Source: a virus (taxonomy: Duplodnaviria; Heunggongvirae; Uroviricota; Caudoviricetes). From it: a stretch of 10,216 nucleotides of DNA. The notes beneath the pieces were generated by a model. The model was given only the letters and a program-made list of their open reading frames with translations, did no database searches and was not told where the DNA came from. The stretch is taken from positions 1-10,216 of IMG/VR virus record IMGVR_UViG_2869924733_000001. One strand, 5' to 3'. A program made the position numbers and the translations under genes. This document shows, piece by piece, positions 1-10,216 of the stretch (position 1 is the stretch's first letter; every line of letters begins with the position of its first letter).

Positions 1-291
1 TTACGTACGCAGCCGCTCCGGTTTTTTCCACTGGTAAGTCTTTTTCTCGCTCTCCCGGTACATCTCCACGCGGCGACGGTAGGCCAGCAACTCGAGTACT
101 CTGGTGCGTATATTGCGCATATCCACGCCGTTAAGCTCAATACCGTCACGGCGCATCACCTCAGCCACCACACGCGCATAGTTCTCAGCGATAACGCTGT
201 CCGGCTGCGTGGCCTCACGTTTGCCTGCTGCCGGGCTGGCTCCGGTAATGCGGCGAATCATTTTGAGCATTTCGGCTTCTGTCATTGTCAT
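1..291 (-). CDS. Hypothetical protein, last gene of the packaging-region operon in this window
   Basis: ORF 1..315 in track begins with TTG; first ATG at 291 has GGAGG 2 nt upstream, second ATG at 285 has 8-nt spacing. Stop codon occupies window positions 1-3. No Cys, basic C-terminus, no family recognised. Confidence 0.45.
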   Translation of the reverse strand: MTMTEAEMLKMIRRITGASPAAGKREATQPDSVIAENYARVVAEVMRRDGIELNGVDMRNIRTRVLELLAYRRRVEMYRESEKKTYQWKKPERLRT

Positions 292-336
292 GGCCTCCGT
301 GGTGATGGAAAACAATGCCGTAATTGTGGCGGGTCC

Positions 337-394
337 TTCCTGGAAAATGAAACACCGGGGGTAGCCATACGCGCAAAAACGCGCTGTTTATGAG
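337..394 (+). repeat. cos-like inverted repeat copy A (palindrome TTCCTGGAA plus 45-bp core GAAACACCG-N13-GCGCAAAAACGCGCT-GTTTATGA)
   Basis: Core at 349-393 matches copy B (1076-1120, opposite orientation) at 9/9 + 15/15 + 7/8 positions with identical spacing; palindrome at 337-345. Confidence 0.4.
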
Positions 395-463
395 ATTTTT
401 TGAGGGGGTGGTTGTTGTTTAATTGTTTGTTATATCCATTTGATAACTAAGAGAAAACTGAAA

Positions 464-560
464 GCAATACAACAACCTGAGGACGTTTTTTTGATGTTAT
501 GGTTCCCAAAATACCAATTAAATCAAATGGTTTAACAAAAATACGCGGTTGTTGTATTGC
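464..560. repeat. Perfect 14-bp inverted repeat GGTTGTTGTATTGC (464-477 inverted, 547-560 direct) flanking a 69-bp AT-rich spacer; related GGTTGTTGT at 410-418
   Basis: Read directly from sequence; lies immediately downstream of the Nu1-like gene stop (568); on the minus-strand RNA the stem would be followed by a U-rich run. Confidence 0.4.
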
Positions 561-567
561 ATACTTA

Positions 568-1008
568 TTAGCTTTCCTGCTCTGTAACTACAGATTGTTG
601 CAGATGCTCACGGCGAACGGCTACGGCATGACGCCACCCAGCCAGAAAGCCAGCCATTTTATTTCGTGCCTTGCTCACATCTTCCGGCGAGTAGCCGTAA
701 ATCTGCAGACCATTATCAAATCGCTGTTCTGTTTCTTCACTGAAATACTCGTCGCGCTCTGATGAAATCAACCTGGCAACCATAATCTTTTCCAGTGCGC
801 TGGTTTCTCCGTGGTACTCAATAGCATCAAGATGACTTTTACCCATGCACCAGAATAATGTGTGTCCGATGTGATAACCGCCGGACTTTCCGCGATCCGC
901 ATCAAGATACGGCATGCCCTGTTTGGTCCATGCGCGAATAGTGGTTCTGTTGACCTTGAAATGTTCTGCTATTTCCTGCTGACTAACAAAACAATCTTTA
1001 TTATTCAT
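568..1008 (-). CDS. Nu1-type small terminase-like winged-HTH DNA-packaging protein (candidate packaging-redirecting protein)
   Basis: N-terminus FVSQQEIAEHFKVNRTTIRAWTKQGMPYL aligns with lambda Nu1 VNKKQLADIFGASIRTIQNWQEQGMPVL (recalled reference); C-terminal half unlike Nu1; ATG at 1008 with AAGG 9 nt upstream; 146 aa. Confidence 0.65.
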   Translation of the reverse strand: MNNKDCFVSQQEIAEHFKVNRTTIRAWTKQGMPYLDADRGKSGGYHIGHTLFWCMGKSHLDAIEYHGETSALEKIMVARLISSERDEYFSEETEQRFDNGLQIYGYSPEDVSKARNKMAGFLAGWRHAVAVRREHLQQSVVTEQES

Positions 1009-1060
1009 AACGTTACCTTAATAATGCGATTAAATATTAATCAAGTGGTGGTGGTGTACC

Positions 1061-1120
1061 CTTTCCCGGAAAGCGTCATAAATAGCGCGTTTTTGCGCCG
1101 CTCCCGCCCCGCGGTGTTTC
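1061..1120 (-). other. cos-like site copy B: cosN-like GC-rich core, shared 45-bp core, and palindrome CTTTCCcGGAAAG (1061-1073), about 55-110 bp upstream of the Nu1-like start
   Basis: Minus-strand reading CGGGGCGGGAGCGGCGCAAAAACGCGCTATTTATGA matches my recollection of lambda cosN and adjacent bases (CGGGGCGGCGACCTCGCGGGTTTTCGCTATTTATGA) at about 24/36 positions with the same spacing, followed by TTTCCGG as in lambda. Confidence 0.45.
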
Positions 1121-1173
1121 TGATTCTGGAAAGGACCCGTGAAAATTGGGGCGATCACCACCGTTCCGGATAC

Positions 1174-1205
1174 AAAAAAATCGCGAGACCTTGCCAGCCT
1201 CGCGA
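1174..1205 (-). terminator. Rho-independent terminator after the capsid operon
   Basis: Minus-strand RNA: stem UCGCGAG(G) / (U)CUCGCGA with about 9-nt loop followed by U7 (plus-strand A7 at 1174-1180); 14 nt downstream of the 1219..1644 ORF stop. Confidence 0.6.
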
Positions 1206-1218
1206 ACGTTCATTTCAG

Positions 1219-1644
1219 TTACTTAACAGACAGCAACAGCTTTTCATCTTCGGTCAGTCCGGCGTTGCCATCACCGGCTGCTGATCCAACACATTTCGGG
1301 CTGTGCTTTTCCATGTACGCTTCAAACAGAAAAGCCGTTTTCTTTTCCTGCATCATTGCCTGGGCATCCACGGCAGCCAGTAACGTTTGTGCATAGGTTA
1401 CTGTCATTACTTCAGAACCACACTCAATCAGCTTACTGGTGAACTCAGGGTATTTTGATGCCAGCGGTAACGCCTTGATACCCTCTATGCGCTGTTTATC
1501 ACTCTCAGCCTTTGCAGTAAGCACCGTTCGGGCTTCTGTCAGTGATGCGCCATTATTTGCGAGATTTTCCGCAAGCGTCGGGTATTTCTGCGCCTCAGGC
1601 AGTGCCATGATCAATGCTCTGGTTGAATTTGCTTTCTCAGTCAT
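1219..1644 (-). CDS. Hypothetical protein with internal tandem repeat (about 32 aa: ALPxAxKYPxL...), in capsid operon
   Basis: ATG at 1644 with GGTGA 4-5 nt upstream; 14-nt gap after gpD-like stop; two similar segments ALPEAQKYPTLAENLANNGASL / ALPLASKYPEFTSKLIECGSEV. Confidence 0.55.
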   Translation of the reverse strand: MTEKANSTRALIMALPEAQKYPTLAENLANNGASLTEARTVLTAKAESDKQRIEGIKALPLASKYPEFTSKLIECGSEVMTVTYAQTLLAAVDAQAMMQEKKTAFLFEAYMEKHSPKCVGSAAGDGNAGLTEDEKLLLSVK

Positions 1645-1658
1645 AAATCACCACAAAA

Positions 1659-1988
1659 TTATTGCCCTAAAGGCTGCACGGAAATACCGGAACCAACAAA
1701 AGCCGACACTTTTTTCTCGAACGTGTCCGCTGTATCAGGCCAGTTAATTTCATCGATATTAAAAACCCCGCACTTATAAACCTGTGCGCGGTTTTTTGTG
1801 GCCGTGTTAATGTCCGATATGGTCAGATACACCGCCTTACCGGGTGTACCGTCCCACTCAACCATCAGGCCCGCGCCGTTCTGCATCAGCGGAGTTCTCG
1901 CTTTAATTTCTCTGGCACTGGCAAAACAGGCCAGCGTGCTGACCAGTTCCTGCGTGCCGGAAAGTAATTGCGTGTAAGGTGTTGGCAT
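1659..1988 (-). CDS. Head decoration protein, lambda gpD family
   Basis: 109 aa against lambda gpD 110 aa; conserved blocks TPLM, W-G-T, Y-K-x-G-x-F, WP, AF-x-G-x-IS at matching spacing (recalled lambda D sequence); AGGGGA RBS 6 nt upstream of ATG. Confidence 0.8.
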   Translation of the reverse strand: MPTPYTQLLSGTQELVSTLACFASAREIKARTPLMQNGAGLMVEWDGTPGKAVYLTISDINTATKNRAQVYKCGVFNIDEINWPDTADTFEKKVSAFVGSGISVQPLGQ

Positions 1989-1998
1989 ACGATCCCCT

Positions 1999-3054
1999 TT
2001 ATTTCACTTCGACGGTAACAAAGCGACCAATATCCACGGGTACTGGCTGCGGGGCGCTGTGCGTCTGCACGTATTCAATCGCCGGATCGCCCGGTACGAT
2101 ATAATTTTTCGGGTAGTACATCCCCTCAGAAAACCCCTCGCGTGCCGCGTCCTGATCCATGATGGCACCATAAGCAACAAGGCCTTTATTTTCGGTATTG
2201 CCGAAAACCATCATGTTTTGTTTCAGGAAATATTGCTGCTGCCCGTCTTCGTCGTCATAACGACCGGAATAAACCACGAGCGCCACATCACCGAGATACC
2301 CCTTGAAGCTGACAACACCGCCCAAATCTTTTAGCGCAAGTTCAAGTGACGAGTTTGAACCGCGGCGCGTGTCCAGGAGTTCGCGGAATCGACGGAACGA
2401 GCGCAAAATACGCCAGGCTTCGCCACCCATGACGATAATATTTACCGTACCTTTGGAAAAATCAGCGTAAGCCTCAATGTCGCTTATCGGATCAAACGTC
2501 TCGGCATCCTGTTTTGACCATTCTTTCCCGCCAGCCTGTGTAATGTGATTGGTTGCGGGTAATCCCCAGTCAATTTCATAACGCTCGATGCCTTCGCCTT
2601 CGATAACGTTCCTGCCTTTTGTGATGGCATTGACCGCCAGCCATTCAATACGTGCTTTGATGGCAGTGATCTGTTTTTTCTGGCTGTCGTGAACCATTTT
2701 TACGCGGCGTAGTGCCGGGGAAGACTGACCATTGCCGATCTGTTCTCCAGCCATGCGCATGATTGTTTTAGTGGGATCAATAACGTGTTTGGGCTTCATA
2801 TAACCCGGCGTGAAAGTGTTCGTTGTAAAACCTTTGTCACGCATAACCTGACTGCCTGACATTGGTGAACAAAACGGACTCATGACCACGTTTTCAATGT
2901 CCAGCGTATCAAGCGCAATATCTCGCGTACTGAACGTGGCGATATTCGGAAAAAACAGCGTCGTAAAGAGCGGATTAAATTTAAATTCCGGCACATCTTC
3001 GCGCCCGATATTTTTCAGTAGCGTTGGTGTGCTTACCAGTTGCAGCGCTGTCAT
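1999..3054 (-). CDS. Major capsid protein, lambda gpE family
   Basis: 351 aa; long collinear similarity to lambda gpE along the whole length (e.g. FKFNPLF, TFTPGYMKPKH, NHITQAGGKEWSKQDAETFDPISDIEAYA, LDTRRGSNSSLE, DVALVVYSG, YPKNYIVPGDPA, QTHSAP), roughly 45-50 percent identity by eye. Confidence 0.9.
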   Translation of the reverse strand: MTALQLVSTPTLLKNIGREDVPEFKFNPLFTTLFFPNIATFSTRDIALDTLDIENVVMSPFCSPMSGSQVMRDKGFTTNTFTPGYMKPKHVIDPTKTIMRMAGEQIGNGQSSPALRRVKMVHDSQKKQITAIKARIEWLAVNAITKGRNVIEGEGIERYEIDWGLPATNHITQAGGKEWSKQDAETFDPISDIEAYADFSKGTVNIIVMGGEAWRILRSFRRFRELLDTRRGSNSSLELALKDLGGVVSFKGYLGDVALVVYSGRYDDEDGQQQYFLKQNMMVFGNTENKGLVAYGAIMDQDAAREGFSEGMYYPKNYIVPGDPAIEYVQTHSAPQPVPVDIGRFVTVEVK

Positions 3055-3260
3055 TACTCACCCCCATGAGGCTGATTCATGCCAAGCGCAGCGCGTAAAT
3101 GACTGCGTACCATCCAGCCGACTGACGGCTTCACCATGCACAACGGATCAAGGCCGACTTTTTTCCCTGCCTCTGCGTTCTCCTCAAAGCGCGCATTAAG
3201 TGCGGCGATAATATCGGGGCTGATGTACACGGATACACCGCCCGGCTTCTGTGTTCCCAT
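3054..3260 (-). CDS. Small hypothetical protein (68 aa) upstream of and translationally coupled to the capsid gene
   Basis: ATG at 3260 preceded by GAGGAA at 9 nt; its TAA stop overlaps the gpE-like ATG (TAATG). Track ORF extends to ATG 3326, which lacks an RBS. Confidence 0.45.
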   Translation of the reverse strand: MGTQKPGGVSVYISPDIIAALNARFEENAEAGKKVGLDPLCMVKPSVGWMVRSHLRAALGMNQPHGGE

Positions 3261-3312
3261 AAATGAGATTCCTCTTTGACTAAAAAACAAACATAACGAA
3301 AAGTCAGCCATG

Positions 3313-3342
3313 ATTTTAATCATCATTGCATTTTTTGCAATG
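3313..3342 (-). promoter_or_regulatory. Candidate sigma70 promoter of the capsid operon with overlapping palindromes
   Basis: Minus strand: -35 TTGCAA (3335-3340), 16-bp spacer, -10 TAAAAT (3313-3318); -35 embedded in inverted repeats CATTGCA-N5-TGCAATG (3324-3342) and TTGCA-A-TGCAA (3335-3345). Confidence 0.35.
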
Positions 3343-3439
3343 CAATTGACTGTTATTGCAAATCATGAAATCATCATGCCGTGGTTTTAATCCTTGTACC
3401 ACAGAGTCATTCAGCATTAATCACGTTAGCGGTATGAAA

Positions 3440-3471
3440 TCCCCCGGAACCTCATCCCGGGGGATTTTTTT
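3440..3471 (+). terminator. Plus-strand intrinsic terminator hairpin (half of a bidirectional pair)
   Basis: 8-bp stem UCCCCCGG / CCGGGGGA, 9-nt loop, followed by T7 (3465-3471). Confidence 0.45.
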
Positions 3472-3475
3472 GCGC

Positions 3476-3503
3476 ACAAAAAAGCCGGGAAAAATCCCGG
3501 CTT
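3476..3503 (-). terminator. Minus-strand intrinsic terminator ending the replication/SSB operon
   Basis: 9-bp stem AAGCCGGGA / UCCCGGCUU with 4-nt loop, followed on the minus strand by UUUUGU; 15 nt downstream of the SSB stop. Confidence 0.55.
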
Positions 3504-3517
3504 CTGTCACTCGTTGC

Positions 3518-3940
3518 TTAAAACGATATGTTATCCCCGTACGGGGCATCATTTCCCGCCTGTTGTTTTGCCCTGTTCAGTGCGTCAGTAGCCTGGCCCT
3601 GCTGGCCTTTTTTGCCGCCCGGTCGCGCCGTTCGCGCACTGATTACGCTGTCTGCGATAACCTGCCAGCCCTGCCGCGTTTCGCCGTTCTGGCCTGTCCA
3701 CTGGCTTACCTGTATGTTACCCGCCACGCTCACCAGTTCGCCTTTGTGGTGTCTGGCCAGTGCGTCGGCCTGTCTGCCAAACGCCAGGACGGATAACCAC
3801 ATCGTCGCCGTTCCGTCATCGGCCTGGCTGCACGGCAGGGGAACCGCCATACTCGCCATCGCCATTTGTGTCCCTTTGCTGGTGGTCTTTAACTGCGGGT
3901 CAGCCACCAGCCGCCCGTAAGCCGCTATCTGTGCTGTCAT
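3518..3940 (-). CDS. ssb: Single-stranded DNA-binding protein (SSB-like, OB fold)
   Basis: N-terminal GRLVADPQLKTTSKGTQMA resembles the SSB motif; conserved W and G-x-V positions; Gly/Gln-rich linker; acidic C-terminal tip DAPYGDNISF comparable to DDDIPF of E. coli SSB; ATGA overlap with upstream ORF. Confidence 0.7.
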   Translation of the reverse strand: MTAQIAAYGRLVADPQLKTTSKGTQMAMASMAVPLPCSQADDGTATMWLSVLAFGRQADALARHHKGELVSVAGNIQVSQWTGQNGETRQGWQVIADSVISARTARPGGKKGQQGQATDALNRAKQQAGNDAPYGDNISF

Positions 3941-4188
3941 GCTGTCACCTCTCCGGTTTTAACGTTGATGGTTGTCACCTGTTCCGCTTCCGCAATTTCC
4001 CGCTCAGTCAGCGTGGCAAAGTTTGCCGCCGCCGTGGTCATGAATGCGCTTATCAGTTCGGGATGTGCTTTCGCGTATCCTTCCCCGGCATGGCGGTCTA
4101 TCGTTCTGATTGCCACCTTTAAGGCGCGCTCTGTCATGTCTAATGCGCGATATTTTGGCGCTGTCTTATCTCTGGTTTTTCTGGTCAT
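3937..4188 (-). CDS. Hypothetical protein (83 aa), first gene after the putative origin, coupled to ssb
   Basis: ATG at 4188 with GGGGAG 9 nt upstream; stop overlaps SSB start (ATGA). Confidence 0.5.
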   Translation of the reverse strand: MTRKTRDKTAPKYRALDMTERALKVAIRTIDRHAGEGYAKAHPELISAFMTTAAANFATLTEREIAEAEQVTTINVKTGEVTA

Positions 4189-4197
4189 TCCTCACTG

Positions 4198-4391
4198 CTC
4201 CCCACTTTTACTACCCACTTTTTGAAATTACCCAACGTCTCCCCACTTCTTTTTTTTGTGATTCTAACGTGATGTTTTTCAATGTATTTTTTATTCCCCA
4301 CTTTTTGGGGTATATACAGGTGAGAAAGTGGGGAATCGCGTTTCAATTTTGTTAAATTCCCCGCACTCCCCACTTTTACTACCCACTTTTT
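4198..4391. repeat. Iteron array, putative replication origin: 26-bp perfect direct repeat CTCCCCACTTTTACTACCCACTTTTT (4198-4223 and 4366-4391) plus further CCCACTT copies
   Basis: Seven copies of CCCACTT(T) (six direct, one inverted at 4327-4333) in about 195 bp; inverted pair CCCCACTTT / AAAGTGGGG flanks AT-rich GGTATATACAGG; immediately 3' of the replication protein gene. Confidence 0.5.
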
Positions 4392-5805
4392 ACAGTGGGC
4401 GCACGTCATCACCGTCAATAGCAATAACGCCATCACCTTCCAGCTTGTACAGCCAGCGCCGGAAGTGTTTCATCTCATACCCCAGCTTTTTCATATCATC
4501 GCGCAACAACGGAATTGTGCATTTATCGCCGCGCTGTGTGCGTGAACGGATACAGCCCCATAGCGCGGCATGATTCTCCGTCTTGTTCCCGGCTTCCTCG
4601 ATGCGCTCCAGTTCAACGGGTGGGCGCGGTTTATCCACAACCACCAGCGACGTGATTAACTCCCCGTCAGTGTCGGTAAAAAGCTCCACCACACGTAAAT
4701 CGTATGCAGCCTCTTTCAGTTCCTCCGCGTCCTTCATTTTGGTGCAGGAGATAACCAGGGCTTCACTGTCTGCACCTTCACGGCGAATACGGTATTCAGC
4801 GTCCAGAGATGCACGAAATGCACTGGAACCACGCGCTCCCTTTGTTTCATCCTTGCCGGAATGGTGAACCACCAGCACCGTGGACCCTGTGCGTCGTTTC
4901 AGTTCGTCACATCCACGGATAAACGCCCCCATATCCCGCGCGTCATTTTCATCATTACCGCCAAAACACCGCGCCAGCGTATCCAGAATAATCATGCGTA
5001 CCGGTTTACCCGTTTCCCTTTCAACCTGGCGGGAAGCGATGACCATTTCATCGACATCAAGCGGGACTGCCGGAAAAATCGGGCGGTTTACCAGGTACAG
5101 ATTTTCCACCCGTTTATCATTAACGATTTCCCATGCCTTGATACGGCGGGGGACACCAATGCCACCTTCACCGACAACATACATCACCGAACCATGCGCC
5201 ACCCTGCGGCCTCCCCAGTGGCGACCCGTGGCAACATGACACGCCCAGGAACACGCGAGGAACGATTTATAGGAACCGCTCGCGCCGTATGTGCTACACA
5301 ATGAATTAGCCGGAATCACGCCTTTAACGACATAATCAAGCTGTGTGTCGTACCCTGCAGATCCAATGCTCATTGGTAGCGTGGTTTTTCGCTGGCTGTA
5401 TTGCTCGTCAGTAAGAATTTCCCCGCGCTCTGCCTGTTCGCGGATCCGTTGCAGGTAGTCGTGCCAGTTCTCCAGCTTCTGGCTGTGCATTCCATCAGGG
5501 TAATAATTCGCATCCCGTACACCTGCCGCCGCCAGCTTTTGCCCGATAGCATTAATATTTGACGGCTTGATGTGGCCTGCCTTGTACAGCCGGACACAAT
5601 AGCGACCATCGTCGATAATTTTCAGGTCTGCCAGTTCGTCAAGCTGGCTGTCTCCAAGCCATACAGGCGGAACATTGTCGCCAGCAAGTCGCCCGTCCTG
5701 CTCCTGCCATTGTTTCGCGTGCGCCCAGGCATCACTACCCGCAAAAATAATGACTTCGGTCATTTTGTCGTGTGGCTGTTTTTTTAAGTTCGGTGCCAGT
5801 TTCAT
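4390..5805 (-). CDS. Replication protein: primase/helicase-type, RecA-fold (AAA_25 / RepA-like) ATPase with N-terminal toprim-like region and C-terminal putative DNA-binding region
   Basis: Walker A YGASGSYKSF, Walker B VRMIILDTLA, and LVVHHSGKDETKGARGSSAFRASLDAEY typical of RepA/DnaB-like helicases; ATG at 5805 with AGGGG 9 nt upstream; ATGA overlap with upstream ORF. Confidence 0.85.
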   Translation of the reverse strand: MKLAPNLKKQPHDKMTEVIIFAGSDAWAHAKQWQEQDGRLAGDNVPPVWLGDSQLDELADLKIIDDGRYCVRLYKAGHIKPSNINAIGQKLAAAGVRDANYYPDGMHSQKLENWHDYLQRIREQAERGEILTDEQYSQRKTTLPMSIGSAGYDTQLDYVVKGVIPANSLCSTYGASGSYKSFLACSWACHVATGRHWGGRRVAHGSVMYVVGEGGIGVPRRIKAWEIVNDKRVENLYLVNRPIFPAVPLDVDEMVIASRQVERETGKPVRMIILDTLARCFGGNDENDARDMGAFIRGCDELKRRTGSTVLVVHHSGKDETKGARGSSAFRASLDAEYRIRREGADSEALVISCTKMKDAEELKEAAYDLRVVELFTDTDGELITSLVVVDKPRPPVELERIEEAGNKTENHAALWGCIRSRTQRGDKCTIPLLRDDMKKLGYEMKHFRRWLYKLEGDGVIAIDGDDVRPL

Positions 5806-6101
5806 TTTGTGCCCCTGAATGCGTTAATCATGTTTTTCATTTTCTGAATATTTGCCCGTGCCTTTGCGTTGCTGGTGGGCTGTCTGCGTGGTGTGGCCTG
5901 TACCAGCGAAAAATCACGCCGGAACTGATAAACAGGCATCACGCAGTCATAGCCGTACCCATCACGGCGGTAAGTAACGCACCGTCCCGCCACGCTTTTA
6001 ATCGTTACCGTGCCGCCGTAGTTATCCCGGAAAATATCGCCGGGGCGGATTTCAGGCCGAGCGGGGCCGCTGGCAGTAAAGCCAGAATTTTTCTGTTTCA
6101 T
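5802..6101 (-). CDS. Hypothetical protein (99 aa), replication operon
   Basis: GAGGAA RBS 9 nt upstream of ATG 6101; stop overlaps primase start. Confidence 0.5.
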   Translation of the reverse strand: MKQKNSGFTASGPARPEIRPGDIFRDNYGGTVTIKSVAGRCVTYRRDGYGYDCVMPVYQFRRDFSLVQATPRRQPTSNAKARANIQKMKNMINAFRGTK

Positions 6102-6106
6102 GGTTT

Positions 6107-6316
6107 TTATTCCTCTGCGCGGGTCTTGTCGTGTATTTCCATAACCGCGTTTAATTCATCAATAACCGGGGTTAACAGAGTGCTGAAAGCAGAAAATAAA
6201 TCCCCCCCCTGTTCGGCATGAACTTCGGTTAATTTAATTAATACCGCTTTCATTTCCAGTGCCCGGTTTAATGCATTCTCAGAATGAATAAGAACATCGA
6301 AAGGGATTTCATTCAT
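6107..6316 (-). CDS. Hypothetical protein (69 aa), replication operon; contains a G8 tract
   Basis: GGAGG 9-10 nt upstream of ATG 6316; coding-strand G8 at 6202-6209 encodes QGGD. Confidence 0.5.
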   Translation of the reverse strand: MNEIPFDVLIHSENALNRALEMKAVLIKLTEVHAEQGGDLFSAFSTLLTPVIDELNAVMEIHDKTRAEE

Positions 6317-6569
6317 GGCTCACCACCTCCGGGAATTTTCTTCTGTAACGCGCCTCTGCAACATATTCCGCATAGTCCGACGCAATATTGAGAATCTCCG
6401 CACCCTCTGACCTGTAGCCACTGGTATTGATAAGAAAAAATGCGGCTTTTATCATGTCAGCAACGCCCAACAATGCGTCTGCTTCGTGTTCCGGTGCGCC
6501 ATCAAATTCCTGTTTCAGGGCATTAAAACGATCATCACGCATAACCCCCCCCATTTTCACAATCAGCAA
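6309..6569 (-). CDS. Hypothetical protein (up to 86 aa; start uncertain: 6569, 6554 or 6542)
   Basis: ORF from track; candidate starts overlap the end of the upstream Icd-like ORF and a G8 tract (6545-6552); 8-nt overlap with downstream ORF start. Confidence 0.4.
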   Translation of the reverse strand: MLIVKMGGVMRDDRFNALKQEFDGAPEHEADALLGVADMIKAAFFLINTSGYRSEGAEILNIASDYAEYVAEARYRRKFPEVVSHE

Positions 6570-6969
6570 TCAGAATGGCTTTGGCCTCATTCAGTGCCAT
6601 ATCAGCGGTAAGCTGTGCGTAGGCCAGCGAATGCGGGATTATTGCCCCTGTATATTCCGGCTCTCTGGTAATGTGTTTTTCTGCGGTTGCTGCCGTGTGT
6701 GAAATATCAATCAGCGCGCGCATCAGTGTTTTGATGGCTTCGGCGGCTGCGTCCGGACGGGTGTTATTGCACATGGTGCACCCCTGACGAATACGGGCGG
6801 CGAATACCATCACACAGCCATCAGGAGATTGCTGGCGTGCTTCCTGTTCGCTGGTGGCCTCAATGGTAATCACGCGCGGTTGTGCTGTGCTCAGGGCGAT
6901 AAAACGCCAGATGTATTTATTCAGGTTGTGCGAGTCCCGCCCTTGCGGGTGTGTGGTATGATTTCTCAT
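6535..6969 (-). CDS. Icd-like protein (P4-type host cell division inhibitor family, tentative), first gene of the leftward operon
   Basis: ATG at 6969 with GAGG 5 nt upstream; N-terminus MRNHTTHPQGRDSHNLNKYIWRF...FAARIRQG resembles Icd-like proteins of P4-type prophages (from memory); it is the 3' part of the spurious 476-aa track ORF. Confidence 0.45.
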   Translation of the reverse strand: MRNHTTHPQGRDSHNLNKYIWRFIALSTAQPRVITIEATSEQEARQQSPDGCVMVFAARIRQGCTMCNNTRPDAAAEAIKTLMRALIDISHTAATAEKHITREPEYTGAIIPHSLAYAQLTADMALNEAKAILIADCENGGGYA

Positions 6970-7064
6970 AGCTACCTCGATACTCTCGTTATCGTTGGTG
7001 GTTAGAAGCCCGTTGGTGTTGGTAGCACCTGCGGGCTTTGTCTTTTCATCGATTACCTCAATAA

Positions 7065-7148
7065 AGGTGTCAGCCACTATACTAGTAACAGGTGTCAGCC
7101 ACGTCAATAGTGTTTTTCCATTTTCTTGTGTGTATACTGTCAGCCACC
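7065..7148. promoter_or_regulatory. Divergent promoter/operator region with three copies of (A)GGTGTCAGCCAC
   Basis: Repeats at 7065-7077, 7090-7102 and 7137-7148; leftward promoter -35 TTGACG (7102-7107) / -10 TAGTAT (7079-7084), 17-bp spacer, with repeats in the spacer and at +1; rightward -10 TATACT (7133-7138) abutting repeat 3. Confidence 0.55.
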
Positions 7149-7168
7149 TAATAACAAGGAAATCAGAT

Positions 7169-7348
7169 ATGGCAACGAAAGCAGTTAATGGAAAATCCAA
7201 AAAACTTGAGGCACGAGTCCCCCATGCAATAGCTGACGCTGTAGAAAATTTAAAGGAAGAAGGTGAAAGCACTGGGCAATTTATCGTTTCGGCACTTGAA
7301 GGCGAGATCAAACGCCGCCAGCGTCGCAAGGCCAAAGAGCAGGAGTAA
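7169..7348 (+). CDS. Ribbon-helix-helix (CopG/Arc-like) DNA-binding protein, candidate repressor of the switch
   Basis: 59 aa; AAGGAA RBS 7 nt upstream of ATG; beta-strand KKLEARVP then two helices (HAIADAVENLKEEG, STGQFIVSALEGEI), basic tail; only convincing plus-strand gene. Confidence 0.6.
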   Translation: MATKAVNGKSKKLEARVPHAIADAVENLKEEGESTGQFIVSALEGEIKRRQRRKAKEQE

Positions 7349-7405
7349 CCATCACCAGCGCCGTGGTGTGAGTAACTACGGCGCATTGCTATGCAGGACA
7401 ACACA

Positions 7406-7558
7406 ATGACCGATAAAGAATTGACCAAAACATTATCACCGGCACGGAAAAGACGGCGCAGAAAGATAGAACATGAATCAGAAAGATTCGCGCCATGTGC
7501 TTTTGCCCTCGAGCAATTCCTTAAAGAGTACAGGGAAAAGCGCTCATTGCAGGTATGA
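7406..7558 (+). CDS. Small basic ORF (50 aa), possibly co-transcribed with the RHH gene
   Basis: ATG 7406 with AGGA 7 nt upstream; protein MTDKELTKTLSPARKRRRRK...; below the track length cut-off; followed by a plus-strand terminator about 100 nt downstream. Confidence 0.3.
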   Translation: MTDKELTKTLSPARKRRRRKIEHESERFAPCAFALEQFLKEYREKRSLQV

Positions 7559-7658
7559 CAACGAACTGAACCAGACTGATTGCATTGCCCACCAGCCGCA
7601 AATGTGGCATTGTTGGCGATGCTCATGCGTTGGGGATAACGCGAAATTTGTGTCGCAG

Positions 7659-7686
7659 GGCCACCGTGACTGGTGGCCTTTTCTTT
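7659..7686 (+). terminator. Plus-strand intrinsic terminator (end of RHH / small ORF transcript)
   Basis: 7-bp GC-rich stem GGCCACC / GGTGGCC, 6-nt loop, followed by TTTTCTTT. Confidence 0.55.
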
Positions 7687-7739
7687 ACCTGTTATCCGGC
7701 AATAGTGGCGCTTCTTCACACAGTTGATATAATTCCCCT

Positions 7740-7810
7740 GCACTGATCCAATTTTTTCGCAGCAGGTTAATTGTTCGCAAGGGCGCTCCGGTAACGGGGC
7801 GCTTTTTGTT
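7740..7810 (+). ncRNA. Candidate small RNA (about 70 nt) between a consensus extended -10 promoter and an intrinsic terminator, convergent with alpA
   Basis: TGaTATAAT at 7725-7733 (-10 hexamer matches consensus 6/6); terminator stem GCGCTCCG / CGGGGCGC with GTAA loop (7783-7802) plus TTTTTGTT (7803-7810); no ORF in between. Confidence 0.35.
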
Positions 7811-7828
7811 ATGTGCATCGCTCCCCCC

Positions 7829-8041
7829 TTACGCCGTTTGCGTCCTGCGAGTGGATGCAAGATAAGCATCGAGATCAGAGCGCATATACAGCACTTTGCG
7901 CCCCAGCTTATGGAAAGGGATTTTTTCTTTACCAGTACACGCCCAGTTAGCAAGAGTCTGGACACTTACCCCCAAATGCTCGGCGGCTTCTTTGCGGGTC
8001 ATTTTTTCTTGAGAATTGATTACGTTCACAAGTAACTCCAC
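7829..8041 (-). CDS. alpA: AlpA / excisionase-family HTH DNA-binding protein
   Basis: MTRKEAAEHLGVSVQTLANW...KIPFHKLGRKVLYMRSDLDAYL matches the excisionase/AlpA HTH pattern; track start is GTG 8041 (AGGT RBS), alternative ATG at 8002. Confidence 0.75.
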   Translation of the reverse strand: MELLVNVINSQEKMTRKEAAEHLGVSVQTLANWACTGKEKIPFHKLGRKVLYMRSDLDAYLASTRRTQTA

Positions 8042-8112
8042 GTATTACCTATTGTTACCGTGAGCTACTTTAGTTTTTTGCTGTGGGGGCGGTAAGGTGA
8101 AAAGCTGATTTT

Positions 8113-8161
8113 CCCAGGGGAAAGCAGGTAAGCCAGGGGAATAGCTGCTTTTACCCTGGCT
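8113..8161. promoter_or_regulatory. Direct repeats CCAGGGGAA(A/T)AGC(A/T)G (8114-8128, 8133-8147) with two mutually exclusive hairpins, between the AT-rich gene and alpA
   Basis: Stem A AAAGCAG / CTGCTTT (about 8120-8149) and stem B AGCCAGGG / CCCTGGCT (8131-8161) overlap, so only one can form. Confidence 0.3.
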
Positions 8162-8174
8162 GATAAAAAATTTT

Positions 8175-8795
8175 TTATGCGTACTCTGGCGGGATCACCA
8201 GTTCTGAGTTTTTGTACTTTTTGTCAGGTGGTGGCGGCGGGGCTAGTTTTTCACTTTTTATCCAGCACTTGATTGTTTCCTCGCTTATCCGGCCCTCATA
8301 TCGACGCGACAGCTTCGCAATCATTTTTGTTTTGGATAGTGCTGGTTCTTTCTTCCATGTGGCTTTCATGATGGCGACTATCTCATCATGTAAATAGTGG
8401 CGGGGACCGGAGGCGGCTTCACTTCTTCTTCTTTTGATAACACCATCAGATATTAATCTAATAACTTTGCCACCACCTTTTGAGGCTATACAGGCTCTTT
8501 TGTATACCCATGAAAGATCCTCAGCAGTATTTTTATATCCAAGTAGCTCTAGTATTAAGATGGATTTCAGAAATACATTAGCACTATGACCTATGTTTAT
8601 CTCCCCTGTTTTGTCTAACGCTAAATATCCTTCCTTATCAATCCTTGCTGCTATTCTTTTCCTTTCTGCTTTTCTATAATATTTAAATTTATCTTTCAAT
8701 TCATACACATGCTCGCTCATTTCCTTTTCGACTTGCTCAAGATAATCATATAATTCAATTCTTGTATCATCATCCACTACATCCCAAACTTTCAT
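8175..8795 (-). CDS. Hypothetical protein (206 aa), AT-rich 5' half, translationally coupled to the integrase; candidate accessory/cargo gene
   Basis: ATG at 8795 overlaps the integrase TGA (ATGA); codons for about the first 110 aa lie in visibly AT-rich DNA (8460-8795) while the 3' half is of ordinary composition; proline run PPPPP near C-terminus; no family recognised. Confidence 0.6.
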   Translation of the reverse strand: MKVWDVVDDDTRIELYDYLEQVEKEMSEHVYELKDKFKYYRKAERKRIAARIDKEGYLALDKTGEINIGHSANVFLKSILILELLGYKNTAEDLSWVYKRACIASKGGGKVIRLISDGVIKRRRSEAASGPRHYLHDEIVAIMKATWKKEPALSKTKMIAKLSRRYEGRISEETIKCWIKSEKLAPPPPPDKKYKNSELVIPPEYA

Positions 8796-10216
8796 TTAGA
8801 CGATACCTCTAAATTTTTGTTTATGATTTTGAAAATTAATTGGCGTTTTTCATCATCACTCATGCTCTCCAGTGCAGAAAGCAATTGCGCATCAATAGAT
8901 TTTTTACTCTCCACCAGCCCGGCATGTTCCAGAATTGCCCGTTCTATCCGTGACGCTGGCTCCAGCAGTTCATCAGCACCAAAATGTAAATACCCCTGCG
9001 TTACGTCAGCACTTCTCATAGTGCGGTGATTCATCAGGCGCTTGAGGGTGTAATTACCCACGCCCACCAGTTCGGCAACCGTTCCGAACGTCCGGCGCGC
9101 ATCGTGCCATTTGAATGGTACAGGGGAGAGCATTTCATCGTTCGACTCTGGGACGGTAGCCGCGCTTATCCGGTCTATGATGTGCCGTGTTTCCTGAATC
9201 ACTCCCTTTGCTCCAGGAAACACCAGTACATCATCAGCGTTTTTTATTTTCAGCCTGCGGCGGAACATTTCCCGCAACGTATCGGTGATCGGTAGCTCGA
9301 GCGGATCCCCGTTTTTCGTGGTATCTATCCAGAAAAAACGACCGCCCATATTCACGCGATCCCACGTAAGGCCAAAAATTTCTGATTTTCTCAGTCCGGT
9401 AAAAAGTGCCATTTCCACGGCATCACATACCGTCACCGCTATATCATCCCTTTCCTGTTCGCCCTGGTCACGTACAGCAGCTACAGCAGCAAACCAGCGG
9501 GGAAAATCATGCAGGCGGATACGTTCCGTTTTTCTTACCGTTCCGTGCCACTGTCGTTTGGTACTCAGTACCAGCGTCGGCGGATCCGGTAAAAGAGTAT
9601 TACCCGCATCATCACGGTAATGATCATGCGCAAACCGACACACGGCACGCAGCGCACGCGCCCATAAATCGGCCTGTGCCTTGCTTCCTGTGCCAACCCC
9701 AGCCCGTAACGTGGTTTTATCAGCACCGAACCATACAGCCCCGTTTGTGACAGCCTTATGCCGCTGTTCCACCCGTTCGCGGGTAATACTGGCGAGGGTA
9801 TGGGCCATCCAGTCACCGGAATAATTCTGTAATATGCTGCGGTACTGTTTTTCTGTGGCGGGTTTCAGGCGGTGGCCACGATTTTTTATGTAGGCTTCAA
9901 GCGCCTCATTCAGCGTTATCATGGCCTTGTTGTTCGTGCGCTTCGCTATGTTCGGGTTTTTCCCCGTTGTGGCGACCTCTCCAAGGAGTTCCATAGCTTT
10001 AGCCCTGGCATTGTCCACACTCAGATCGGGAAAACGCCCCAGCGTTGCACGAATAAATTTTCCGTTACGCTTACGGGAAATGCAGAAACTTTTCACACCA
10101 GACGAACCCACACGGACACGCAGCCCGTTAACCTCCGTATCACCATATTCGACCTGTCCATGTTCCGGCGTTGGCAGTTCTGCAATTTTTACTTTAGAGA
10201 ATCTGAATAATTTCAC
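8792..10216 (-). CDS. int: Tyrosine recombinase / integrase (P4-type, N-terminal arm-binding domain); 5' end at window edge
   Basis: N-terminal arm-type domain (KIAELPTPEHG...GLRVRVGSSGVKSF...RATLGRFPDLSVDNARAKA); catalytic-domain motifs LRKSE, HDARRT, NHRT...GYLH; ORF starts with GTG at the last window base, so the true start may lie beyond. Confidence 0.9.
   Translation of the reverse strand: MKLFRFSKVKIAELPTPEHGQVEYGDTEVNGLRVRVGSSGVKSFCISRKRNGKFIRATLGRFPDLSVDNARAKAMELLGEVATTGKNPNIAKRTNNKAMITLNEALEAYIKNRGHRLKPATEKQYRSILQNYSGDWMAHTLASITRERVEQRHKAVTNGAVWFGADKTTLRAGVGTGSKAQADLWARALRAVCRFAHDHYRDDAGNTLLPDPPTLVLSTKRQWHGTVRKTERIRLHDFPRWFAAVAAVRDQGEQERDDIAVTVCDAVEMALFTGLRKSEIFGLTWDRVNMGGRFFWIDTTKNGDPLELPITDTLREMFRRRLKIKNADDVLVFPGAKGVIQETRHIIDRISAATVPESNDEMLSPVPFKWHDARRTFGTVAELVGVGNYTLKRLMNHRTMRSADVTQGYLHFGADELLEPASRIERAILEHAGLVESKKSIDAQLLSALESMSDDEKRQLIFKIINKNLEVSSK

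Follow-up and report, generated by a model that had tools for sequence, protein, structure and literature searches.

A probable iteron origin at the 3' end of rep in a Gram-negative phage-inducible chromosomal island, and a candidate one-residue, one-base rule for its recognition

The question raised by a cluster of short repeats in the viral record IMGVR_UViG_2869924733_000001 (Caudoviricetes) is whether these repeats constitute an origin of replication and, if they do, which protein reads them and by what feature of their sequence. The window, by which is meant the whole stretch of DNA that was analyzed, spans positions 1 to 10,216 of that record, and the repeats lie at 4198-4391, at the end of the gene for a 471-amino-acid (aa) replication protein, Rep. 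An earlier note, made from the sequence alone, had proposed a putative iteron origin at this place, and the proposal has since drawn support from three sides: the surrounding genes are those of a phage-inducible chromosomal island (PICI), the layout of the repeats is conserved among relatives, and the sequence of the repeats covaries with a single residue of Rep. As set out below, we read the region 4189-4391 as the Rep-dependent vegetative replication origin of a Gram-negative PICI, and assign this reading a probability of roughly 85%.

The most conspicuous element of the array is the 26-bp sequence CTCCCCACTTTTACTACCCACTTTTT, which a repeat search recovered twice on the + strand, at 4198-4223 (copy 1, the distal iteron pair) and 4366-4391 (copy 2, the proximal iteron pair), with 100% identity, the copies being 168 bp apart. 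The shorter unit CCCACTT is found seven times in the 10,216-bp window, always inside 4201-4388, six times on the + strand (4201, 4214, 4242, 4297, 4369, and 4382) and once on the - strand (4326-4332). Chance would supply 1.36 such units, and none of 200 shuffled sequences reached seven, the maximum being five. The rep open reading frame (ORF) occupies 4390-5805 on the - strand and its TAA stop codon therefore lies at 4390-4392, sharing 2 nt with the second 26-mer, while the first iteron begins 2 nt past the stop. On all of these points (the two exact copies 168 bp apart, the seven units with one inverted, the position directly downstream of the replication gene, and the overlap with its stop codon) the description in the earlier note was accurate. 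Two degenerate - strand units can be added to its list, AGTGCGGGG at 4359-4367 and AGTGAGGA at 4189-4196, giving a total of seven exact and two degenerate iterons. The exact identity of the 26-mers is itself lineage-specific; relatives keep the 8-10-bp cores, and the spacer within each pair is not kept.

Followed from the rep stop codon, the iterons fall into three groups. The proximal group comprises AAGTGGGT at 4381-4388, in a position that is kept in relatives, and AAGTGGGG at 4368-4375, both on the - strand, together with the degenerate unit at 4359-4367, which corresponds to a third unit found near +25 in relatives. The central group is an inverted pair, with one AAGTGGGG unit on the + strand (4326-4333) and one on the - strand (4296-4303); these two units make up a perfect 12-bp inverted repeat (4293-4304 and 4325-4336) flanking TTGGGGTATATACAGGTGAG. 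The 22-bp spacer of the pair (4304-4325) contains a motif, TGTATATA, that appears here as GTATATAC at 4310-4317. Past the central pair comes an AT-rich tract of about 30% GC (4249-4295), presumed to be a DNA-unwinding element from its composition, its duplex stability and the gap of 55-60 bp that relatives show at the same place. The distal group lies beyond this tract on the - strand, and consists of AAGTGGGG at 4241-4248 (near +143 in relatives), AAGTGGGT at 4213-4220, AAGTGGGG at 4200-4207, and the degenerate terminal unit at 4189-4196, which abuts the start codon of the next gene; the locus of E. coli UMNF18 likewise has a fourth distal unit, at about +194.

The composition of the region fits this arrangement. 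GC content falls to 30-35% around 4220-4320, against 50-60% in the flanks, and the stability of 30-bp duplexes is about -34 kcal/mol at 4250-4299, compared with a window mean of -41.2 kcal/mol (standard deviation 3.7). The earlier note had pictured all of the units as surrounding one AT-rich TATATA segment. The TATATA and the AT richness are both present, but the TATATA lies in the spacer of the inverted pair (4304-4325) and the longer AT tract is adjacent to it, so that the array resolves into three iteron groups rather than one set around a single AT block. The next gene, an ORF at 3937-4188 on the - strand, starts at 4188, and GGGGAGCAGTGAGGAATG is what its strand reads just ahead of it. 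The GGGGAG that forms the end of the first 26-mer (4198-4203), at the flank of the last exact iteron and 9 nt ahead of the ATG, is a plausible Shine-Dalgarno sequence for this gene.

An inverted repeat at this place in the genome brings to mind a quite different function, namely an RNA hairpin at 4293-4336 that might terminate or process transcripts at the boundary of the replication and late genes. RNA from the - strand could indeed fold into a 12-bp stem of -16.1 kcal/mol (z = -2.5), but the loop would be 20 nt long and the run that follows the stem is A-rich; the size of the loop and the missing U-tract led to the rejection of the inverted repeat as a terminator. In addition, no terminator was predicted here and an Rfam scan of the whole window returned no match. 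The loop motif TGTATATA is also more conserved than a loop would be expected to be, and each stem arm is simply an iteron, varying in concert with all the others. A hairpin function is thus very improbable.

Much of the case for an origin comes from the relatives of Rep. A scan of one genome per species yielded 80 Enterobacterales loci that encode relatives of Rep (49-72% identity), the genera including Xenorhabdus, Pantoea, Serratia, Pectobacterium, Morganella, Kosakonia, and Citrobacter; the iterons of 76 of these loci could be typed. In nearly all 80, iteron-like sequences are the commonest 7-mers within the 370 bp that surround the rep stop codon. The earlier note had named the absence of the repeats from elements with the same replication protein as an outcome that would speak against its proposal; the array is instead present across these relatives. 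A near-constant layout is seen in 66 of the 76 typed loci, and most of the remainder have the same central pair with a slightly different spacer. Two or three direct units stand at +1 to +25 from the rep stop. The central pair, in the arrangement shared by the 66 loci, comes next, its inverted unit falling between +41 and +68 (mostly near +52) and its direct unit near +84. The gap within the pair is mostly 24-26 bp (22-36 overall) and holds TATATA or TATAC, with TATA or TATC present in every one of the 66 loci. After a further gap of 55-60 bp, direct units recur at about +143, +170, and +183. In a footprint of 82 unique origins from the E. coli clade, AAAAGTG.G and TGTATATA are near-invariant, with seven of the eight positions of the latter at least 95% conserved, and the spacers are variable.

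Comparison of homology endpoints indicates which genes the array travels with. In E. coli UMNF18 (locus L003, H36), homology to the window runs from 4199 onward, and the genes downstream are those for ProQ/FinO and PerC proteins. Conversely, in many E. coli islands the homology that covers the genes for an 83-aa protein and a single-stranded DNA-binding protein (SSB), the first genes past the array, ends at 4180-4189, and a 584-aa Rep of the 'DNA primase family' with TCTACC/GGTAGA iterons is found there. Judged from these breakpoints, the array recombines as a unit with rep and not with the downstream genes, and the 83-aa gene belongs to a module that recombines independently of rep and the origin. 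The late modules of relatives differ completely, being of the lambda-like capsid type, of the HK97 type found in capsid-forming PICIs (cfPICIs), or of the ProQ/PerC type, and the array is at the rep stop in each. Three E. coli islands with ProQ/FinO and PerC genes downstream of rep carry, in addition, an extra inverted iteron pair, CTCACTTTTGCGTATATATAAGGATTAAAAAGTGAG, at 5870-5915 in L003, about 3190-3230 in L085, and about 3175-3215 in L086. This extra pair lies in a long AT-rich intergenic region about 100 bp past the main array, or about 290-330 bp after the rep stop.

These observations bear on the possibility that the array is purely a transcriptional control region, to which Rep or another island protein binds as an operator, governing read-through into, or a promoter of, the genes of the 83-aa protein, the SSB, and the capsid. 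The array does take up the intergenic space behind rep, its last unit reaches into the ribosome-binding region of the next gene, and the conserved TATATA between the inverted units would pass as a weak -10 element; moreover, the iterons of plasmids often serve as operators too. Set against this are the lack of any predicted sigma-70-like promoter or terminator on either strand of 3900-4700, the persistence of the array with rep when the downstream genes are replaced, and a three-group layout with an AT-rich gap that matches mapped origins of PICIs and of the pathogenicity islands of Staphylococcus aureus (SaPIs). A role in transcription alone is accordingly improbable. Less probable still is a role in packaging (as a cos/pac site) or in recombination, with a terminase small subunit or a recombinase as the reader instead of Rep. 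PICIs require a packaging signal, and this island encodes a small helix-turn-helix (HTH) protein (568-1008) with weak similarity to terminase small subunits. Yet the sequence of the iterons tracks a residue of Rep and no other gene, the array keeps its place at the rep stop despite wholly different late modules, and the integrase and the ends of the element are kilobases away. We regard a packaging or recombination site as scarcely credible, and return to the origin and to its proposed reader.

The typed loci differ in the core sequence of their iterons. The core of the window, AAGTGGGG, recurs in Pantoea, Kluyvera, and others; Xenorhabdus and O157-type islands of E. coli have AAGTGAGG, whereas the core is AAGTGCGGC in Kosakonia, Enterobacter soli, and Citrobacter amalonaticus, and AAGTGGGGG in Serratia, Pectobacterium, and Morganella. 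Each origin has one variant only, shared by all of its units including the inverted one. When the C-termini of the Rep proteins were aligned by iteron type, a single position was seen to track the variant, immediately before a conserved F-x-R-W motif (KHF, KNF, KKF, or RKSF). In the window Rep this residue is His447, whose codon, CAC, lies at 4465-4467 on the - strand, and which directly precedes the third, or recognition, helix of a predicted winged-helix domain.

To extend the comparison, 160 loci were added from metagenome and viral contig collections, giving 194 unique combinations of the C-terminal 80 residues of Rep and an origin. Histidine at residue 447 goes with G at iteron base 6 in 65 combinations and lysine with G in 33; asparagine goes with A in 63, serine with C in 15, and glycine with C in 8. 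All told, 184 of the 194 combinations are concordant and none is discordant, the others having too few iterons (seven loci) or an unreadable motif (three loci). On a neighbor-joining tree of 125 unique C-terminal domains, built with the column in question masked, the joint state of residue and base changed at least 16 times.

Close relatives of the window provide what amounts to a natural minimal pair. One Rep (P0030) is the window Rep over residues 391-471 except for the substitution H447N, and its origin (L085) reads AAGTGAGG in every unit. A second (P0059, with origin L086) matches the window Rep over 396-471, again apart from H447N, and again AAGTGAGG is found in all units, the inverted one included. 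The concerted change of eight dispersed units along with one residue points to one common reader and is otherwise hard to explain; as an argument from sequence it appears stronger than the covariation count. The comparison of these relatives as a whole suggests that one amino acid of Rep sets which repeat sequence is recognized. The broader proposition is that origin specificity is set largely by one recognition-helix residue (His or Lys for G, Asn for A, Ser or Gly for C), such that a single substitution with a concerted change of all eight or so iterons would create a new, mutually orthogonal replicon; for this we would give even odds.

One locus departs from the usual pattern of a single origin behind rep. 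In Xenorhabdus beddingii (L006, NZ_MUBK01000002.1), a second complete origin of the same layout is present about 215-400 bp past the rep stop, directly after the cognate AAGTGAGG origin. The iterons of this second origin are of the AAGTGGGG/AATGGGG type, mismatched to the adjacent Rep of KNF type. This tandem is the sole case among 185 distinct loci and, from its sequence, could represent an intermediate of recombination or of a specificity switch, or else the use of another island's Rep.

The predicted architecture of Rep has three parts. An N-terminal alpha/beta domain (residues 1 to about 131) is followed by a RecA-type, RepA-like helicase core (AAA_25, 152-320) and, at the C-terminus, by the predicted winged helix. 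A search of PDB sequences with Rep gave RSF1010 RepA (1g8y) as the sole match, a weak one (E = 0.0086) over residues 153-326. The AlphaFold2 model of the full protein has a mean predicted local distance difference test score (pLDDT) of 66.6, with the N-terminal 130 and C-terminal 70 residues predicted confidently. A Foldseek search with the full model returned RecA folds only (RadA, Rad51, and T7 gp4), because the helicase dominates the search, and the winged helix came to light with a model of the domain on its own. That domain, residues 400-471 (window 4393-4608, - strand), has a pLDDT of 87-94 in the full model; modeled alone it has a pLDDT of 86 and a predicted template modeling score of 0.74. 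Its parts in the model are helices at 410-425 and 431-440, the recognition helix at 448-457, and a beta-hairpin wing at 461-470. The listed PDB matches to the domain are mostly winged-helix proteins, among them PcaR, DtxR, the DNA-binding domain of LexA, and the winged helices of MCM4 and MCM8, at template modeling scores of about 0.6.

The N-terminal domain tells a somewhat different story. Pfam searches at E up to 10 with the first 145 residues of Rep, with its C-terminal domain, and with the 83-aa protein gave nothing credible, the match to RepB_primase_C (E = 0.13) being at chance level; without a credible match in the N-terminal domain, the 'primase' label that some databases attach to Rep is unsupported. 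Residues 1-131 (window 5413-5805) are 63% identical to the corresponding part of the 584-aa 'DNA primase family' Rep of a cfPICI (L004, 6601-8355). In Rep proteins of this L004 type, found in cfPICI-type islands, the helicase part and the iterons differ from those of the window, and the N-terminal 131 or so residues alone are common to the two. Such a pattern makes the domain appear to be an exchangeable module. Among Rep alleles that are about 93% identical, differences are confined to the C-terminal winged helix and to the linker before the helicase core; this linker, at about residues 104-136 (window 5395-5490), may be a second determinant of specificity or interaction.

The genes around the origin, identified by Pfam and PHROG searches, place it in a recognizable kind of element. 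All long ORFs of the window are on the - strand, so that genes are co-oriented within 10 kb. They include a tyrosine integrase (8792-10216), an AlpA-like HTH_17 protein (7829-8041), a DUF4222 protein (5802-6101), and rep itself, which matches Pfam AAA_25 (E = 2.5e-43), phrog_2850 over its full length, and primase/helicase PHROGs. Past the origin lie the gene for the 83-aa protein (phrog_1231, 3937-4188), with homology breakpoints at 4180-4199, and that for an element-encoded SSB (3518-3940, Pfam SSB, E = 6.3e-16), which is likely to be an accessory to origin firing. A lambda E-like major capsid protein (1999-3054), a gpD-like decoration protein (1659-1988), and the small HTH protein mentioned above follow. 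No portal, protease, or large terminase gene was found in the window, in contrast to L004, an HK97-type cfPICI that has its 83-aa and SSB genes in common with the window. From this gene content and the gene order of its relatives, which where annotated is the same as in described Gram-negative PICIs, the window can be taken as a complete or nearly complete Gram-negative PICI.

Elements with this replication module are widespread. DNA related to the rep-origin region is present in 1,657 of 5,426 complete E. coli genomes, and positions 3-7821 of the window are about 95% identical to many of them. A 98% identical copy of the rep-origin region occurs in an island of E. coli TUM9812 (NZ_CP128926.1, 6757-19294) that is inserted in a lambdoid prophage, where it splits the gene for the terminase large subunit into two parts, each annotated as partial; a PICI embedded in a helper in this way has been described (PMC10111431). 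A search of a phage collection with Rep gave distant helicase or primase-helicase matches only, and with all of these at 54% identity or less, no phage in the collection carries the rep module of the window. The integrase end, 7821-10216, is without a close match in the complete E. coli genomes and looks like a swapped integration or accessory module. It includes a low-GC ORF of 206 aa (8175-8795) for which there was no PADLOC or PHROG match and only a sub-threshold Pfam hit to HTH_32, possibly an unknown cargo gene; PADLOC found nothing among the unannotated ORFs of the window.

How does this origin compare with those already known? Origins of Gram-negative PICIs map directly 3' of pri-rep and have two sets of iterons around an AT-rich region (PMC6092414). 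The cloned pri-rep-ori of EcCICFT073 supports plasmid maintenance, which is impaired by deletion of ori or rep (Fillol-Salom et al. 2018, PMC6092414). The window resembles this module in element type, in gene order, in an origin 3' of rep with sets of short iterons round an AT-rich region, and in the pairing of each Rep allele with iterons of its own; its 83-aa and SSB genes are also found beside the L004 type of Rep. The two Rep types are otherwise distinct, that of the window being a 471-aa AAA_25 protein with AAGTGGGG iterons and that of L004 a 584-aa 'DNA primase family' protein with TCTACC/GGTAGA. Four Pri-Rep alleles named in the EcCICFT073 study (AAN79964, AHG11293, CBG34588, and CAR08829; PMC6092414) were absent from the cluster look-up, but the window Rep may still be one of them. 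A plasmid described in a preprint, pIGMS31, was considered and set aside as an unrelated system.

The SaPIs offer a second parallel. Their Rep proteins are self-loading helicases in which a C-terminal winged helix binds iterons of 5-6 bp just downstream of rep (Qiao et al. 2022, PMC9371898). Islands of the PICI/SaPI kind are about 10-15 kb long, with an AlpA- or Stl-type regulator, and the window likewise has an integrase, an AlpA-like regulator, and co-oriented genes. Two sets of short (5-10 bp) iterons bordering a region that is rich in AT are typical of these origins, and here the tract at 4249-4295 separates the distal group from the central and proximal ones. A hexameric helicase-initiator that reads iterons through a C-terminal winged helix is the third common element; for the window Rep the fold is predicted, and recognition is indicated by the covariation and the minimal pair. 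As in SaPIs, the origin abuts the rep stop, 6-12 short iterons stand on both sides of an AT-rich center, and specificity goes allele by allele; the self-loading scheme can serve as a working model. There are also differences. SaPI Reps belong to a group of AAA+ proteins related to SF3/MCM helicases and translocate 3'-5', and SaPI iterons to either side of the region rich in AT run in opposite directions (PMC9371898). The window Rep has a RecA-fold AAA_25 core in place of the AAA+ module, and its iterons have the same orientation on both sides of 4249-4295, the unit at 4326-4333 alone being inverted, an all-direct-but-one arrangement that is conserved across its Rep family.

The earlier note had likened the array to the ori and crr repeats of satellite P4, which is also an autonomously replicating satellite of E. 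coli phages and has a primase-helicase whose C-terminal domain reads octamer repeats. Two cis regions set apart from each other, ori and crr, are required by P4, whose initiator, alpha, joins an alpha-type primase to a superfamily 3 (SF3) helicase. The comparison does not extend to the window as the closest one. Here there is one block of 200 bp with no second, crr-like cluster, CCCACTT is found nowhere else in the 10.2-kb island, and matches with one mismatch occur elsewhere at chance level. Rep is not of alpha type, with AAA_25 as its only Pfam match, no alpha-type domains, and structural matches to RecA folds, and the iteron sequence, gene order, and element family differ as well. The PICI/SaPI rep-ori module is the closer analogue.

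Two kinds of plasmid invite comparison on other grounds. The IncQ plasmid RSF1010 divides the work among a separate iteron binder (RepC), a helicase (RepA), and a primase (RepB'), and has iterons of about 20 bp. The window Rep shares with it an AAA_25/RepA-family helicase core and direct iterons beside an AT-rich region, but fuses a predicted iteron-reading winged helix to the helicase and has iterons of 8-10 bp; no RepC-like or RepB-like gene was found in the window by Pfam or PHROG. In classical iteron plasmids such as pSC101, R6K, F, and RK2, the initiator is a Rep_3 protein with WH1-WH2 domains and is not a helicase, iterons are 17-22 bp, and replication uses DnaA boxes and the host DnaB/DnaC. 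Repeated initiator sites beside an AT-rich unwinding element, with the initiator gene adjacent, are common to these plasmids and the window, which differs in having no Rep_3 domain (Pfam), no conserved DnaA box, and shorter iterons, of 8-10 bp. A perfect DnaA box, TTATCCACA, does occur at 4631-4639, inside rep and 240 bp from the origin. Only 4 of 83 loci, one of them the window, have a perfect box in the stretch from 450 bp upstream of the rep stop to 300 bp downstream of it; lying inside rep and not being conserved in relatives, it was rejected as part of the origin and is probably a by-product of the coding sequence.

Drawing on the EcCICFT073 pri-rep-ori and the SaPI Rep-ori, from which binding, melting, self-loading, polarity, priming, and replication at the window origin are all inferred by analogy, a sequence of events can be proposed. 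After induction by a helper phage, the winged helix of the island Rep would bind the iterons of 8-10 bp (coding strand AAAAGTGGGG), with His447, at the start of the recognition helix, reading iteron base 6. Binding would take place at the three groups, namely the two or three direct units at the rep stop, the inverted pair with its 22-bp TGTATATA spacer, and the three or four units beyond the AT tract of about 47 bp. Rep multimers assembled there would melt the TATATA spacer, the AT tract, or both, and the spacer at 4304-4325 is a candidate for the site of first melting or of helicase entry. Rep would then load itself as the helicase, with no separate loader, and the island SSB, from a gene just downstream, would cover the separated strands. 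Primers could come from the N-terminal domain of Rep or from the host DnaG.

Several points weigh against the identification of 4189-4391 as an origin of this kind. Literature searches found no experiment on this sequence or this Rep allele, and the published functional test was of EcCICFT073, which, to go by a match to the related strain Nissle 1917, probably carries the other Rep type. The AT-rich tract is only about 2 standard deviations below the mean stability, and the window has weaker DNA elsewhere. In the model of full-length Rep the helicase core is poorly predicted, with pLDDT below 50 over residues 316-399, the Foldseek E-values for the winged helix are weak (0.07-0.4), and no primase domain was identified in Rep by Pfam at E up to 10. 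Since the C-terminal domain of Rep is encoded right beside the origin, linkage makes independent covariation events appear more numerous than they are. Finally, the same sites could act as operators in addition to their role in replication.

An origin of a PICI is a kind of feature already known, and the earlier note identified that kind correctly; for the general picture of satellite origins there is nothing fundamentally new here. What does appear new, going by literature searches, is the fixed layout across a whole family, the fusion of a RepA-type helicase to a winged helix in this role, and the rule of one residue and one base. PICIs, which are very common in E. coli, mobilize virulence and defence genes, and for efficient transfer they need to replicate once a helper phage has induced them. 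The present analysis marks the origin of one common Rep allele and reveals a rigid three-part layout that is conserved across Enterobacterales. The proposed correspondence between residue 447 and base 6 is specific and testable, and is the part most worth an experiment. If true, it would account for the coexistence, without cross-talk, of many PICI replicons from one family, and would amount to a simple route, taken repeatedly, that keeps co-resident satellites from competing for each other's initiator. It would also provide ready-made pairs of rep and ori that are orthogonal and reprogrammable for replicon design.

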